27,684 nt of DNA from a virus (taxonomy: Duplodnaviria; Heunggongvirae; Uroviricota; Caudoviricetes). Location: IMG/VR virus record IMGVR_UViG_2562617057_000002. One strand, 5' to 3'. A program made the position numbers and the translations under genes. Below are positions 3,777 to 8,749 of the stretch, one piece after another. Under the pieces are notes generated by a model. The model ran no database searches and had not been told where the DNA came from. It saw only the letters and a program-made list of their open reading frames with translations. Position 1 is the stretch's first letter. The number at the start of each line of letters is the position of its first letter.

Positions 3777-3957
3777 TACTACCCTCGTAATGGTGCGACA
3801 GGTACCAGGTGTTCAGACTGGCGTTGCCAGTATAATTTAGTCTTCTTTAATACAGAAGTGGCTTACAGAATTGTAACCGTCTCATTTAAACCGTCTTTCG
3901 CCTCCCTTTCCTGTTTCCGATACTAATGTCCATTTTCGCAGTAAAGGGACATTTAAG

Positions 3958-4599
3958 ATGAATGCACGAAAAGCGGTACTGGCAGACAATCCGGAATTGA
4001 TCCTGCGTGTGCTACAACTGAGATTTGACGAGTCACTGTCGTACCCGCGCATTTCTGCGCAGACCGGTATCAGCAAAACCGCCATTTTTTCTCTGGTGAG
4101 GCGATTTCACCAGGTATTCACTGACTGGCCTCTTTCCGGGGAATATTCCTGCGTGCAACTGGCCCGGGCTTTGTTCCCGGGGCGATACCCTTCAGCCCCG
4201 ACAGTAACTCAGACTGTGAAAACAGAGAAAAACCGCCGGAACCGATTTTCACCGGAGTTTAAATGGAGACTTGTTCAGCAAACTCTTTTACCCGGTGCCT
4301 GTGTCGCACAAATAGCTCGTGAGAACGGAATCAACGATAACCTGCTCTTTAACTGGCGGCATCTCTGGCGTAACGGCGGCCTGCAGCCGACCGGCGAACA
4401 TGAAACATCGCTACTTCCCGTGACGTTAACTCCGGAGCCGGATAATAAAATCCCGGCACCAGTGCAGATACCTGAACAGATGCCCGACAGTCTGTGCTGT
4501 GAGCTGGTTCTGCCGGCCGGAACTCTCAGGCTGAAAGGTGAACTGACACCGGCGTTATTACAGACACTTATCCGCGAAATGAAAGGGAGCAGCCACTGA
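3958..4599 (+). CDS. tnpA: IS66-family accessory protein TnpA-like (213 aa, with N-terminal extension)
   Basis: C-terminal half (RFSPEFKWRLVQQTL...IARENGINDNLLFNWR) matches the IS66 Orf1 HTH motif; first gene of the element; stop overlaps the tnpB start (ATGA). Confidence 0.75.
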   Translation: MNARKAVLADNPELILRVLQLRFDESLSYPRISAQTGISKTAIFSLVRRFHQVFTDWPLSGEYSCVQLARALFPGRYPSAPTVTQTVKTEKNRRNRFSPEFKWRLVQQTLLPGACVAQIARENGINDNLLFNWRHLWRNGGLQPTGEHETSLLPVTLTPEPDNKIPAPVQIPEQMPDSLCCELVLPAGTLRLKGELTPALLQTLIREMKGSSH

Positions 4600-4946
4600 T
4601 GATATCTCTCCCTGCCGGTTCGCGTATCTGGCTGGTTGCCGGTATCACCGACATGCGAAATGGTTTTAACGGCCTGGCATCAAAAGTTCAGAACGTCCTG
4701 AAGGATGACCCGTTCTCCGGGCATCTGTTCATCTTCCGCGGACGCCGGGGTGACCAGATAAAAGTGTTGTGGGCTGACAGTGACGGACTGTGCCTCTTCA
4801 CCAAACGCCTGGAGCGGGGCCGCTTCGTCTGGCCGGTTACCCGTGACGGCAAGGTGCACCTTACTCCGGCTCAGTTATCTATGCTTCTTGAAGGTATCAA
4901 CTGGAAGCACCCGAAACGAACGGAACGCGCTGGCATCCGCATATAA
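4599..4946 (+). CDS. tnpB: IS66-family TnpB (Orf2)
   Basis: 115 aa, MISLPAGSRIWLVAGITDMRNGFNGLA...KVLWADSDGLCLFTKRLERGRF is the characteristic IS66 Orf2 sequence. Confidence 0.85.
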   Translation: MISLPAGSRIWLVAGITDMRNGFNGLASKVQNVLKDDPFSGHLFIFRGRRGDQIKVLWADSDGLCLFTKRLERGRFVWPVTRDGKVHLTPAQLSMLLEGINWKHPKRTERAGIRI

Positions 4947-4965
4947 CCCGTTGTAAAGTGAGGAT

Positions 4966-6537
4966 ATGGACACCTCACTTGCTCATGAGAATGCCCGCCT
5001 GCGGGCACTGTTGCAGACGCAACAGGACACCATCCGCCAGATGGCGAAATACAACCGCCTGCTCTCACAGCGGGTGGCGGCTTATGCTTCCGAAATCAAC
5101 CGGCTGAAGGCGCTGGTTGCGAAACTGCAGCGCATGCAGTTCGGTAAAAGCTCAGAAAAACTTCGCGCTAAAACCGAACGACAGATACAGGAAGCACAGG
5201 AGCGAATCAGCGCACTTCAGGAAGAAATGGCGGAAACGCTGGGTGAGCAATATGACCCGGTACTGCCATCCGCCCTGCGCCAGTCTTCAGCCCGTAAACC
5301 GTTACCGACCTCACTTCCCCGTGAAACCCGGGTCATCCGGCCGGAAGAGGAATGCTGTCCGGCCTGTGGTGGTGACCTCAGTCCTCTGGGGTGTGATGTG
5401 TCAGAGCAACTGGAGCTTATCAGCAGCGCTTTTAAGGTTATCGAAACACAACGTCCGAAACTGGCCTGTTGCCGGTGCGACCATATCGTGCAGGCACCAG
5501 TACCTTCAAAACCCATTGCACGCAGTTATGCCGGAGCGGGGCTTCTGGCTCATATCGTCACCGGGAAGTATGCAGACCATCTGCCGTTATACCGCCAGTC
5601 AGAAATATACCGTCGTCAGGGCGTGGAACTGAGCCGCGCCACGCTGGGGCGCTGGACCGGTGCCGTTGCTGAACTGCTGGAGCCGCTGTATGACGTGCTG
5701 CGCCAGTATGTACTGATGCCCGGTAAAGTCCATGCGGATGATATCCCCGTTCCGGTCCAGGAGCCGGGCAGTGGTAAAACAAGAACTGCCCGGCTGTGGG
5801 TCTATGTCCGTGATGACCGTAACGCCGGTTCACAGATGCCCCCGGCGGTCTGGTTCGCGTACAGCCCGGACCGGAAAGGTATCCATCCACAAAATCACCT
5901 GGCCGGTTACAGCGGTGTGCTTCAGGCCGATGCTTACGGTGGTTACCGGGTGTTATACGAATCCGGCAGAATAACGGAAGCCGCGTGTATGGCTCATGCC
6001 CGGAGAAAAATCCACGATGTGCATGCAAGAGTGCCCACCGACATCACCACGGAAGCCCTGCAGCGTATCGGTGAACTGTATGCCATCGAGGCAGAGGTCC
6101 GGGGCTGTTCAGCAGAACAGCGTCTGGCGGCAAGAAAAGCCAGAGCCGCGCCACTGATGCAGTCACTGTATGACTGGATACAGCAACAGATGAAAACACT
6201 GTCGCGTCACTCGGATACGGCAAAAGCGTTCGCATACCTGCTGAAACAGTGGGATGCACTGAACGTGTACTGCAGTAATGGCTGGGTGGAAATCGACAAC
6301 AACATTGCAGAGAACGCCTTACGGGGAGTGGCCGTAGGCCGGAAAAACTGGCTCTTCGCGGGTTCTGACAGCGGTGGTGAACATGCTGCGGTGTTGTACT
6401 CGCTGATCGGCACATGCCGTCTGAACAATGTGGAGCCAGAAAAGTGGCTGCGTTACGTCATTGAACATATCCAGGACTGGCCGGCAAACCGGGTACGCGA
6501 TCTGTTGCCCTGGAAAGTTGATCTGAGCTCTCAGTAA
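4966..6537 (+). CDS. tnpC: IS66-family transposase TnpC (DDE)
   Basis: 523 aa; N-terminal coiled-coil/leucine-zipper region, Cys cluster (CPACGG...CCRCDH), C-terminal DDE core; typical IS66 Orf3. Confidence 0.85.
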
Positions 6538-6833
6538 ATATCAATACGGTTCTGGCGAGCCGCTTACACAGAATCTGCGTGCGATTCTTTGCTGATTAGA
6601 ATTGCATCAGGAGGTAATGGCGTTACGATAAACTCCCCATTTTCGAGCGTTATCACTTCGTAGTGACCTGGTAAAGAAAGCACAACAATCAATTCTTTAA
6701 CGTTCATAACAAAAAGCCTGTGAACTTTTAACACTTCCCCTTAAGGGGTCCATCCCTCTTCTCCCTGCGCGCTACTTAAGTGTTTTTGATTCTATTCCTG
6801 CGCATTCTGAAAGTTCAAACGAGTTGAAAATCG

Positions 6834-6857
6834 CAACAAAAAACCCGCCGAAGCGGG
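6834..6857 (-). terminator. Rho-independent terminator after the 272-aa membrane-protein gene
   Basis: Minus strand: CCCGCTTCGGCGGG hairpin followed by TTTTTTGTT (plus-strand caacaaaaaacccgccgaagcggg). Confidence 0.5.
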
Positions 6858-6879
6858 TCTGGTTATTGATGAATTAACT

Positions 6880-7698
6880 TCACGGTTTGGGCTGGAAATT
6901 CTTATTCAGCGCTCTGCACTGCTCTTTGTCTTCTTCTTCATGGGCTTTAAATACAGAATAAGTATCAGGGTCAAAAAACGAGATAGATTCCACTTCCCTC
7001 TTGGCTACAAGTATCCGAAAGTCTTCAAGGCTAAGGCCGCCAAGACCTTCCGCTACAATTCCTTCTGACTGATAATGTCGGCGGTAGTTTGTTGTGATGT
7101 TTGTAGTTAACGTACCCTTATCCCGATACCCACTCAACAGCGGAAGAAGTTCAATATGGGTAAAATCGCCGTTTTCAAAACTTGGGCAGATAACAATTCC
7201 AACGTAAAATTTTCTGGATGAGAGTGTTATAATGACGGGAAATTGCCTGACTGCTGCTTCCATCAGGAAGCTCTCTTCTGGACTTGTGGAAACAATTCTT
7301 GCGATAGCATCCAACCTGCGATCCCCTTTCTCTGTTCTTTTTTTGCGCCGCCAACCGCAAAATGCAGCAAGAGCAACAGATGTCATTCCCCAGACTGCAG
7401 ATTTAAGATCCTTTATCGAATTTCCTCCATCAAAAGAGATAGGAAAAACTCTTTTCAGGGCATCAGGACCAAGATGAAAAAAATGCAGAATACCGTTAAT
7501 CAACCAGCGGTATACCCCAAGGAAACCAAGGATCGTACAAACAACCCACGCAACACAGACAAAAACAGCTCCCCAGGTTGCAACAAAAAAATAAGCGTCC
7601 CATCCCACAGAACGCTTATACCTATATCTTGTTTCCAAACAAAGAGTAACATAAACATAACCACTAATCAGTATGACAGCGATCAATAGCGTATTCAT
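6880..7698 (-). CDS. Hypothetical integral membrane protein (272 aa): ~4 N-terminal TM helices plus a ~150-aa C-terminal soluble domain
   Basis: Long ORF in an AT-rich segment; hydrophobic stretches at residues ~3-21, ~35-75, ~100-117 followed by RRKKRTEK (positive-inside); start adjoins the upstream small gene's stop; no family recognised. Confidence 0.6.
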   Translation of the reverse strand: MNTLLIAVILISGYVYVTLCLETRYRYKRSVGWDAYFFVATWGAVFVCVAWVVCTILGFLGVYRWLINGILHFFHLGPDALKRVFPISFDGGNSIKDLKSAVWGMTSVALAAFCGWRRKKRTEKGDRRLDAIARIVSTSPEESFLMEAAVRQFPVIITLSSRKFYVGIVICPSFENGDFTHIELLPLLSGYRDKGTLTTNITTNYRRHYQSEGIVAEGLGGLSLEDFRILVAKREVESISFFDPDTYSVFKAHEEEDKEQCRALNKNFQPKP

Positions 7699-7700
7699 TC

Positions 7701-7907
7701 TTACCCTGGCTTTTTGTTTTCCAATGACTCAAGCTTGTCCAGCTGTTCTTTGATAGCCTTTCTGACCTTGTCGTTCTCAAGGTTAACCATGATGAAACCA
7801 TCGTCGCTTACTTCGAACTTATCCTTGTTTTCTTTAAGAACTTTTGACAACCTGTTCGACGGTGTCTGTATGGTTCCATACCCTCTTATTGCATATGCGA
7901 GACTCAT
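7701..7907 (-). CDS. Hypothetical small soluble protein (68 aa from MSLAYAIRG), first gene of a two-gene cassette
   Basis: Strong Shine-Dalgarno GGAGGT 4 nt upstream of the ATG at 7907; Lys/Glu-rich C-terminus; stop (7701-7703) sits 2 nt before the downstream gene's ATG. Confidence 0.55.
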   Translation of the reverse strand: MSLAYAIRGYGTIQTPSNRLSKVLKENKDKFEVSDDGFIMVNLENDKVRKAIKEQLDKLESLENKKPG

Positions 7908-8076
7908 TCTTACCTCCCATCTTACCGTTATCACCGTGTAGTGACACTGTTACATCCATGTATAAATGCTTTGATACTATGGCTATACCATTAAAATAAG
8001 TTTACCGGAAGACTTTGATCAACTACTTTTCACACCAAATACACAAATAATGTGAAACACAACATAGAAATTGTCA

Positions 8077-8094
8077 AAACCGCCGGGTGGCGGG
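8077..8094 (-). terminator. Rho-independent terminator downstream of the hok gene
   Basis: Minus strand CCGCC-ACCC-GGCGG followed by TTTT; preceded within the 3' UTR by a perfect 9-bp hairpin (8125-8146, GGCGGGAGA/TCTCCCGCC). Confidence 0.5.
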
Positions 8095-8155
8095 TGCGTT
8101 GAGGATGCCTGACACATCAAAGGTGGCGGGAGATTACTCTCCCGCCTGGTCACTC

Positions 8156-8311
8156 TTACTCTCTAGATTCGTAGTCTACGAAGACAGCGACCTCCGTCTG
8201 GCCGGTTCGGATTCGTACCTCATAGAGGTCTTTCCTCGTTACCAGTGCCGTCACAATGACGGTTAAACAGATGACGATCAGGGCGATTAACATCGCCTTT
8301 TGCTGCTTCAT
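8156..8311 (-). CDS. hokD: Hok/Gef-family type I toxin (HokD/RelF-like, 51 aa)
   Basis: MKQQKAMLIALIVICLTVIVTALVTRKDLYEVRIRTGQTEVAVFVDYESRE: single TM helix plus conserved Hok C-terminal motif; the ORF track's 70-aa frame is an in-frame N-terminal extension. Confidence 0.8.
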   Translation of the reverse strand: MKQQKAMLIALIVICLTVIVTALVTRKDLYEVRIRTGQTEVAVFVDYESRE

Positions 8312-8569
8312 AGCCTGCTTCTCCTTGCCTTTCGGCACGTAAGAGGCTAACCTACATGTGTCTAGCATGAAATTGGCCTCAGATTAATGTTAAGCGTCTT
8401 GCAGGACGCGTAATGTTAACCGGGGCTTTTCTCTATCTGCCGTTGGTGTTCATGCCCGAGGCAGATAGCCTCAAGCACCCGCAGTCATTCTACTTAACTA
8501 AGATTTCCCTGCAAACCGTTTTTGTCCAGCACAGTAAATATCCAACTAAACCAATGGAGTTCGCTGTAT

Positions 8570-8749
8570 TTACCGCCAGTATTCAATGCACATGACCGCC
8601 ATGAACACCCCTAAAAAAAGGGCATTTATATATCCAAATATTAATATCAAAACATCAACTTTTTCCATATACCTTGCTGTGAAGATGATGGGCATACATG
8701 ATGCGAACAACCAGAACGCAACAAACAAAAACTGCAATGCGTTTTTCAT
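8570..8749 (-). CDS. Hypothetical small membrane protein (59 aa from MKNALQF, two predicted TM helices)
   Basis: AGGGGGAA Shine-Dalgarno 4 nt upstream of the ATG at 8749; very hydrophobic; AT-rich context next to hok. Confidence 0.35.
   Translation of the reverse strand: MKNALQFLFVAFWLFASCMPIIFTARYMEKVDVLILIFGYINALFLGVFMAVMCIEYWR

Follow-up and report, generated by a model that had tools for sequence, protein, structure and literature searches.

The 27,684-nt window analyzed here, a stretch of a tailed-phage record (Caudoviricetes, IMGVR_UViG_2562617057_000002), carries on its minus strand a cassette of two adjacent genes, located between positions 6880 and 7907 and encoding a charged soluble protein of 68 aa (the small protein) and a membrane protein of 272 aa (the large protein). 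The two genes appear to form a self-contained, horizontally mobile operon that belongs to a very widespread uncharacterized family. They stand side by side in all intact close relatives, and the pair occurs as sporadic, horizontally mobile cargo in at least four unrelated backbones. As for its function, we infer that the pair could well be an uncharacterized exclusion or abortive-infection module of mobile elements that acts through a membrane effector.

Anatomy of the Cassette

The cassette has the anatomy of a moron, with its own terminator, a low GC content, and a module boundary located exactly at the terminator. Both open reading frames (ORFs) described in an earlier sequence-only reading, namely a soluble 68-aa protein with a GGAGGT Shine-Dalgarno (SD) sequence and a 272-aa ORF beginning 2 nt later, were confirmed on the minus strand (Table 1). 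The SD sequence of the small gene is strong, minus-strand positions 7918-7905 reading GGGAGGT-AAGA-ATG. Since the large gene starts 2 nt past the small-gene stop codon, it is probably translationally coupled to the small gene. RefSeq annotates both ORFs as hypothetical (WP_000050565.1 and WP_001094287.1). The terminator that had been placed at 6834-6857 was recovered as a minus-strand intrinsic terminator, with a stem running from 6860 to 6841 and followed by a T-run, and it forms the left edge of the mobile module, given that homology to two other lambdoid prophages starts at 6840. The description of the cassette as an AT-rich moron next to hok also holds: the GC content is 0.39-0.455 over positions 6600-8000 vs. 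approximately 0.47-0.60 in most of the window, and hok lies directly upstream. The intergenic region between hok and the small gene contains a probable hok terminator and candidate promoter elements, the latter comprising, as read by eye, TTGACA at 8076-8071 and an extended -10-like site, TGgTATAGC, near 7990.

A Widespread Family Known as Hypothetical Proteins

The large protein matches phrog_3630 (6e-92) and the small protein matches phrog_9843 (3.8e-31), both PHROGs of unknown function. A word-indexed search for homologs of the large protein yielded 56 clusters at 90% identity from Enterobacterales, Aeromonas, and others, and an exhaustive profile search extended the family to 2,819 clusters at 50% identity (E ≤ 1e-3), including 1,869 clusters at E ≤ 1e-10. 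Nearly all of these clusters are about 250 aa long and are matched over their full length. Homologs of the small protein are recovered better by position than by sequence, the sequence searches having returned 4 clusters initially and 27 with a profile. The family is represented in Enterobacterales, Aeromonas, Shewanella, Pseudomonas phages, marine Gammaproteobacteria, and metagenome-assembled genomes (MAGs) labeled Rhodothermales, Actinomycetes, and Bryobacteraceae. In deposited phages (Salmonella SEN4/SEN5, Klebsiella ST15-OXA48phi14.1, and Pseudomonas vB_Pae_U5/U6) the homologs are named hypothetical protein, and cluster members in NCBI, UniRef, and IMG are likewise labeled hypothetical. 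UniRef gives one homolog, P0002 of Photorhabdus luminescens, a name that begins with "Heat-induc...", all other sources giving the family as hypothetical.

The view that neither protein can be annotated was upheld by the searches. No significant match to Pfam, NCBIfam, or PADLOC was found for either protein, and the matches obtained in these databases with both proteins and 41 diverse relatives were, apart from DUF6338 in remote members, sub-threshold noise (VinK_C, DUF1828, ORF6N, Cas2, and TrmBL2); the weak sub-threshold PADLOC match of the small protein was to Cas2 (E 0.0027). A sequence-profile search of the PDB gave chance-level matches only (claudin, PsbD, and YaeO, the last at E 0.16), and Foldseek against BFVD returned weak helix-bundle matches, none of them at E ≤ 0.001. 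Homology to characterized non-defensive phage proteins, which would have spoken against a defensive role, did not emerge from the searches with either protein. A literature search on DUF6338, the accessions, the PHROG identifiers, and Sm-like proteins in combination with anti-phage activity found no characterization of the family, DUF6338 being merely mentioned in one paper.

Conserved Pairing of the Two Genes

For the pairing survey 137 loci were fetched. Every intact close homolog of the large gene has a homolog of the small protein directly upstream (115 pairs), the only exceptions being frameshifted large genes. The gap between the two genes is most often -1 (50 pairs), -4 (23 pairs), or +3 nt (15 pairs), with others mostly within the range of -4 to +8 nt. 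An iterated hidden Markov model also detects the upstream ORF in remote pairs, namely those of Photorhabdus paralogs, Shewanella, and marine Gammaproteobacteria. The most remote members, including those from MAGs labeled Rhodothermales, Actinomycetes, Bryobacteraceae, and Pseudomonadales, were inspected singly. Those with a complete upstream region have a same-strand ORF of 53-112 aa, which ends anywhere from a 4-nt overlap to 78 nt before the large gene. By eye, these upstream ORFs mostly show alternating hydrophobic residues, a Gly turn, a second stretch of alternating hydrophobic residues, and an amphipathic helix, an arrangement that is not clear in L057, the most remote member. Thus, members with as little as 24-33% identity retain a small ORF at the equivalent position, and the suggestion that the pair is a conserved unit proved correct, as it is strictly kept across phages, plasmids, and islands.

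Selection on both genes is purifying, the median dN/dS in homologous pairs being 0.19 for the small gene and 0.05 for the large gene. Over 80 distinct pairs, pairwise identity in the small protein closely tracks that in the large protein (r = 0.96; Mantel 0/500). Given the strict pairing, the correlated divergence, and the purifying selection, the two genes constitute an ancient, co-inherited functional unit. Among the longer homologs, whose extensions are C-terminal or internal, no Rosetta-stone fusion joining the two proteins was evident.

Genomic Distribution and Neighborhoods

In lambdoid prophages the pair travels in a 1.65-kb module comprising the cassette terminator, the pair, and hok/sok (from 6840 to approximately 8500 in the window, the right end falling at 8492 or 8527), which is 97% identical across three otherwise different prophages. 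The other two copies are located at 9001-10651 in locus L002 and at 5173-6859 in locus L058, and one carrier is an Stx1d-converting phage. The lambdoid version was found in 10 of the 5,426 complete Escherichia coli genomes. The nin-to-Q position expected for the cassette was recognized in E. coli CFSAN029787 (L001): in the near-identical prophage of this strain the cassette lies in the nin region, flanked by the replication/hok region on one side and by DUF1367/DUF1364/DUF1133 (Q-like) genes on the other. In none of the non-lambdoid contexts (P2-like prophages, siphophages, plasmids, and islands) is the pair accompanied by hok. Beyond hokD in L002, the Stx1d prophage of E. coli C311, convergent genes for a beta family protein and an sce7726 family protein (11023-12658) are present that the window lacks; this gene pair may be a separate accessory or defense cargo.

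Most of the loci are P2-like prophages, where the pair separates the portal gene from gpA, or from the DinI-like gene that often comes after gpA. This cos-proximal gpA-portal hotspot holds old and tin in P2 and is a reservoir of anti-phage systems (PMC9122126). Variable genes directly downstream of the P2 pairs match bSEFIR (1e-102), Septu PtuA (3e-118), NDT_II-A (1e-53), PDC-S49, and DndB/DpdB-like and DitB-like models, and in E. coli MS14386 a retron St85 system follows the pair directly. In Table S5 of Rousset et al. (2022; PMC9122126) the proteins WP_000094764 and WP_000212611 are listed as "hypothetical + hypothetical" and are accompanied by SieB, PIN_12, or DUF262/DUF1524; this pair is outside the set of systems tested in that study (PMC9122126). 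Among E. coli genomes, 52 carry the P2-type pair vs. 2,611 (3,371 places) with a P2-type portal. It is thus present in approximately 1.6% of E. coli P2-like prophages, which identifies it as cargo rather than core machinery. A DinI-like (Tum-like) gene regularly precedes the pair in P2-like prophages (L005, L020-L022, L064-L104, and L146), and a chromosomal islet of Pectobacterium (L011-L013) consists of just the DinI-like gene and the pair between housekeeping genes, looking like the remnant of a P2-like element. This order of genes raises the possibility of SOS-linked expression.

Other phage backbones carry the pair at different places. In siphophage-type prophages of Aeromonas and others (L008-L010 and L123-L137) the genes for the tail terminator, an Ig-domain tail protein, and DUF6246 come first, followed by the pair and then the tape measure; a tail gene block is an unusual site for accessory cargo. 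In Shewanella the pair is found at a prophage end, between the tail genes and the integrase, and in a Succinivibrio prophage it is near integrase and Bro-N genes.

Outside phages, homologs are present on 32 plasmid records in total. The IncC conjugative plasmid pSTY1-2010K-1587 (L147, 3872-6789) has a remote pair encoding proteins of 68 and 262 aa with a 3-nt gap, located directly after the gene for a 547-aa AAA-family ATPase and between the mer operon and a DNA methyltransferase gene; this version is found on approximately 25 Salmonella plasmid records. A marine gammaproteobacterial island (L139/L140, 1-7804) encodes HsdM, HsdS, SMODS/AGS_C, SLATT_6, HsdR, and YgjP, followed by a remote pair. 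The SMODS/AGS_C cyclase and SLATT_6 genes of this island, which resemble a CBASS pair, are embedded between hsdS and hsdR of the type I restriction-modification (R-M) operon. In a chromosomal islet of Photorhabdus the pair is near HicAB. Among the 132 neighbors of remote pairs that were scanned in bulk are integrases and transposases as well as some housekeeping genes, and the PADLOC matches near remote pairs include a type I restriction endonuclease, a CBASS cyclase with a 2TM effector, and PDC-S05/S23/S24/S48.

Predicted Structure of the Two Proteins

The large protein was modeled with AlphaFold2 (AF2) on the basis of 36 sequences (pLDDT 77.7). The model has helices at residues 2-19, 33-60, 94-125, 140-151, and 244-260, short helices within 62-84, and five strands (154-159, 163-170, 181-192, 199-204, and 229-241). 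Three transmembrane (TM) segments are assigned to its N-terminal part: TM1 covers residues 3-21 and TM2 residues 34-60, with a basic loop on the cytoplasmic side (22-33) between them, and TM3 (98-116) follows a periplasmic loop that includes a short interfacial helix (62-73). By hydropathy the first two TM segments are strong, whereas the third is weaker and rich in Gly, Ala, Ser, and Thr. Four Lys and Arg residues fall in the loop 22-33 and nine in residues 117-135. Together with hydropathy and the positive-inside rule, the AF2 model favors three TM helices with an N-out/C-in orientation as the most likely topology. The sequence-only reading had proposed about four TM helices and a cytoplasmic domain of approximately 150 aa; the cytoplasmic domain is retained in the model, and the count of helices is more likely three. 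The N-terminus (VTLC) was also considered as that of a lipoprotein or as a signal peptide; this was rejected, since Leu occupies position -1 and the Cys lacks conservation.

The cytoplasmic domain is predicted to adopt an Sm fold, with an N-terminal helix (140-151) followed by a strongly bent β-barrel of five strands, an insertion between β4 and β5, and a C-terminal helix. The best structural matches of the model are RNA-binding Sm/LSm/Hfq proteins. The residues invariant over an alignment with 22-44% identity are G13, Y165, G167, P186, S189, G190, R192, and Y205; all of them except G13, which is in TM1, belong to the predicted barrel, where the conserved motifs are SRK-Y-G, PLLSGYRDK, and TTNY. 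Sm1/Sm2 and Hfq sequence motifs are absent, and neither the large protein of the window nor the 41 relatives gave a Pfam LSM or Hfq match.

In the alignments of the small protein, the conserved core is formed by a Gly-turn β-hairpin followed by an amphipathic helix, and the motif RL..VLKEN is invariant within its close subfamily. The AF2 model (pLDDT 67) has a β-α-β-β-α topology. Neither a confident fold match nor a DNA-binding match was obtained for this protein, so that its designation as a small regulator is an assumption.

Proposed Function and Alternative Explanations

The evidence that backs an anti-phage role is circumstantial and strong, consisting of the cargo status of the pair in the P2 gpA-portal hotspot and of the type I R-M/SMODS-SLATT neighbor in the marine island. 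Co-localization with known defense genes was observed for bSEFIR, PtuA, NDT_II-A, PDC-S49, retron St85, SieB, PIN_12, DUF262/DUF1524, and type I R-M with SMODS/SLATT. TM proteins of defense systems are usually suicide effectors (PMC9122126).

In the preferred reading, superinfection exclusion or abortive infection, the first gene encodes a cytoplasmic mini-protein of approximately 50-110 aa with a Gly-turn β-hairpin and a helix, and the second an inner-membrane protein with a cytoplasmic barrel of predicted Sm/LSm/Hfq fold. Sm-fold domains typically form rings of five to seven members. In the mechanism that we propose, copies of the large protein would make such a ring on the cytoplasmic face of the membrane, which would gather 15-21 TM helices and place the Gly/Ala/Ser-rich TM3 closest to the ring axis, in an MscS-like arrangement. 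The loops carrying the SRK-Y-G, PLLSGYRDK, and TTNY motifs would be where a ligand, a nucleic acid, or a partner binds. The small protein, supplied stoichiometrically from the upstream coupled ORF, would hold the assembly closed or couple it to an infection cue, and the triggered assembly would depolarize or permeabilize the membrane or block DNA entry. For this mechanism we infer the oligomeric state, the channel activity, the roles of both proteins, and the defense phenotype. A bolder proposal, which we put forward tentatively as possible rather than probable, is that the pair is the first example of a new, widespread immune or exclusion class, a gated "Sm-ring channel" that is controlled by the mini-protein and whose invariant loops would sense a cue from infection, be it a nucleic acid, a nucleotide, or a phage protein.

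Several observations weigh against a defensive membrane effector of this kind. PADLOC v2 (PADLOC-DB v2.0.0) gave no significant match for either protein or for any of the 41 diverse relatives. Comparison by hhalign of the family profile with E. coli Hfq returned a probability of 0.5%, the Sm assignment being by fold only, and the AF2 model of the small protein, mediocre in quality, has no significant fold match. In the region from hok to the small gene, a scan for the sigma-70 consensus found no site reaching 9/12 matches. The matches among neighboring genes are descriptive and lack a statistical background control, and some remote loci are flanked by housekeeping genes, with no obvious defense genes nearby. 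Finally, in P2-like prophages of Klebsiella, Enterobacter, and Salmonella the pair is often the constant neighbor of variable defense cargo, which also fits a non-defensive accessory role.

Such an accessory role, as a lysogenic-conversion channel, a stress protein, or a factor in the induction of the carrier phage itself, is rather unlikely, although this constant position in many P2-like phages is compatible with it, as is the location of the pair behind a DinI/Tum-like, SOS-linked gene both in these prophages and in the Pectobacterium islet. The layout of three TM helices and an Sm-like barrel recalls MscS-type channels as well. On the other hand, the rarity of the pair among E. coli P2-like prophages means that it is dispensable for the phage, and it takes up unrelated positions in different phages and also exists outside them.

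We consider it unlikely that the pair is a toxin-antitoxin (TA) or addiction module, in which the membrane protein would be the toxin, the coupled mini-protein the antitoxin, and defense secondary to stabilization of the element. A small ORF placed first and tightly coupled to the second gene resembles type II TA loci, the lambdoid version forms one module with hok/sok, remote pairs are found near HicAB and a SocA/Panacea-like gene, and the pair is present on conjugative plasmids. The proteins themselves fit this explanation less well: the small one has no recognizable DNA-binding or antitoxin fold, and the would-be toxin differs from simple membrane toxins in being large and in having a cytoplasmic domain that is highly conserved (dN/dS 0.05). 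Furthermore, there are no orphan copies of either gene among approximately 140 loci.

Still less probable is a membrane-tethered RNA binder of the Hfq/LSm type, which would sequester or localize RNAs for host takeover or counter-defense with the mini-protein as a cofactor. It is suggested by the RNA-binding proteins among the best structural matches and by conserved basic and aromatic residues on the predicted barrel (R162, K163, Y165, Y191, R192, K194, and Y205); in addition, LSm-like fold proteins have been reported from T-even phages (PMC12152347). The lack of Sm1/Sm2 or Hfq motifs and the negligible profile similarity to Hfq speak against it, and the occurrence of the pair in non-phage defense islands and on plasmids argues against a phage takeover role. 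The explanation of the two genes as chance or decayed ORFs without function, for which there is nothing beyond the missing annotation, is refuted by the strong purifying selection, the 2,819 family clusters matched nearly all at full length, the confident predicted fold, and the synteny conserved across phyla.

Other Features of the Window

The coordinates of the cassette and of the surrounding features are collected in Table 1. Since the Rfam match of sok extends over the full model length, the hok/sok locus looks intact. The strongly hydrophobic 72-aa ORF upstream of it may be another small moron. On the other side, just past the cassette terminator and a 56-aa ORF, an IS66-family element occupies positions 3872-6567 and is absent from the otherwise near-identical CFSAN029787 prophage. 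The flanks overlap by approximately 7 nt in the comparison of the two prophages, consistent with a target-site duplication, and the insertion abuts the 3' end of the 56-aa ORF. In a cluster of four tRNA genes, the one with a CAT anticodon is assigned to Met by ARAGORN and to Ile by RefSeq in the homologous prophage.

Table 1. Features of the two-gene cassette and its surroundings in the window.
Feature	Positions	Strand	Basis or remark
Small gene, 68 aa	7907-7704, stop 7703-7701	-	ORF and translation
Large gene, 272 aa	7698-6883, stop 6882-6880	-	ORF
Shine-Dalgarno sequence GGAGGT of the small gene	7917-7912	-	Direct reading; 4 nt before the ATG at 7907
Membrane region of the large protein, residues 1-116	7698-7351	-	AF2 helices, hydropathy, Lys + Arg counts
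Predicted cytoplasmic Sm/LSm/Hfq-fold β-barrel domain, residues ~140-260	7281-6919	-	Predicted structure
Intrinsic terminator of the cassette, AGACCCGCTTCGGCGGGTTT + T-run	6860-6834, stem 6860->6841	-	Terminator scan
Intergenic region upstream of the small gene	7908-8100	-	Holds the probable hok terminator and candidate promoter elements
Probable hok terminator, CCGCCacccGGCGG+TTTT	8100->8078	-	Read by eye
hok/sok type I toxin-antitoxin locus	8156-8480	-	RefSeq Hok/Gef annotation and Rfam sok
hok	8156-8311	-	Directly upstream of the cassette
sok	8306-8480	-	Rfam RF01794, 113 bits, E 2e-26, full model length
72-aa ORF just upstream of hok/sok, strongly hydrophobic, membrane-like	8570-8788	-	GC ~0.38-0.41
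56-aa ORF just beyond the cassette terminator	6564-6734	-	Hypothetical protein WP_001101065.1 in CFSAN029787
IS66-family element ORFs, 213/115/523 aa	3958-4599, 4599-4946, 4966-6537	+	Comparison with CFSAN029787
Four tRNA genes: Val-TAC, Thr-TGT, Arg-TCT, and one with a CAT anticodon	1834-2141	-	Upstream of the lysis genes

Implications

The family is large, strictly two-gene, and highly constrained, yet it has no Pfam family, no entry in a defense database, and no paper devoted to it. The P2 gpA-portal slot, in which most of the loci surveyed reside, is the best-validated anti-phage hotspot known, and the unannotated loci that have been tested in hotspots are mostly defensive (6/8 in P4 hotspots; PMC13586616). 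The combination of a membrane anchor, a predicted Sm/Hfq-like barrel, and an obligatory mini-protein has no characterized precedent among defense systems. If defensive, the pair would provide a new type of effector or sensor and a new biological role for the small β-barrel fold. Should the Sm-ring channel proposed above be correct, it would be the first membrane effector to use an Sm-fold domain for sensing or gating, and would represent a new defense family spanning several bacterial phyla on phages, plasmids, and islands. Being present in Stx-converting prophages and in clinical Klebsiella and Salmonella prophages, the pair could affect host range in phage therapy. If the pair proves non-defensive, a widespread DUF-like family would still gain a defined function. 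The pair is a widespread, clean, and experimentally tractable candidate that appears in the published hotspot table only as hypothetical.

Comparison with Known Systems

Judged by sequence, neither protein displays a defining feature of any characterized family. One of the nearest named families is DUF6338 (PF19865), a family of uncharacterized integral membrane proteins of similar size and membrane character, which is matched by 3 of the 41 diverse members. One of the three, the remote member P0195, exceeds the gathering threshold (30.8 bits vs. 26.5); its match takes in profile positions 7-112 of 205, which correspond to the TM region, and leaves out the barrel. DUF6338 is not matched by the large protein of the window or by most members of the family. 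These matches of remote members over the TM region point to the family being a remote relative of DUF6338.

With the Sm/LSm/Hfq superfamily, which includes WYL and Rof/YaeO, the large protein shares its predicted barrel, which in this case is instead fused to a three-helix membrane anchor. It further differs by the helix and variable loop inserted between β4 and β5, by the extra C-terminal helix, and by the lack of profile similarity. The likeness to MscS is an architectural analogy only, in that three TM helices (N-out) are followed by a cytoplasmic Sm-like β domain; the cytoplasmic β domain of MscS forms a heptameric ring. Membership in the MscS family was rejected, as no homology to PF00924 (TM3 and β domain) was found.

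Among TA systems, hok/sok is an adjacent locus that moves as one module with the pair in lambdoid prophages, and the type V system ghoS-ghoT (GhoST) has a similar order, with a small gene followed by one for a membrane protein. The fold of GhoS resembles that of Cas2, to which the small protein has its weak PADLOC match. Neither a DNA-binding antitoxin nor a toxin of a known family, both characteristic of type II TA systems, was recognized in the pair.

The defense systems with membrane effectors, namely RexAB, CBASS Cap15, the Pycsar/CBASS TM effectors, Rst_2TM_1TM_TIR and Rst hydrolase-TM from P2/P4 hotspots, and SieB, share with the pair the niche of prophages and hotspots, and in these systems, as in the pair, a TM protein is combined with a cytoplasmic partner or a ligand-binding domain. 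Unlike them, the pair has no sequence match in PADLOC and no signal-generating enzyme, and its partner protein is only 50-110 aa long. Cap15 consists of two TM helices and a β-barrel, the latter presumably different from the Sm-like barrel predicted for the large protein. The gpA-portal slot that the pair takes up in P2-like prophages is also the site of old, tin, and the AC1 TIR+TM system (PMC9122126).

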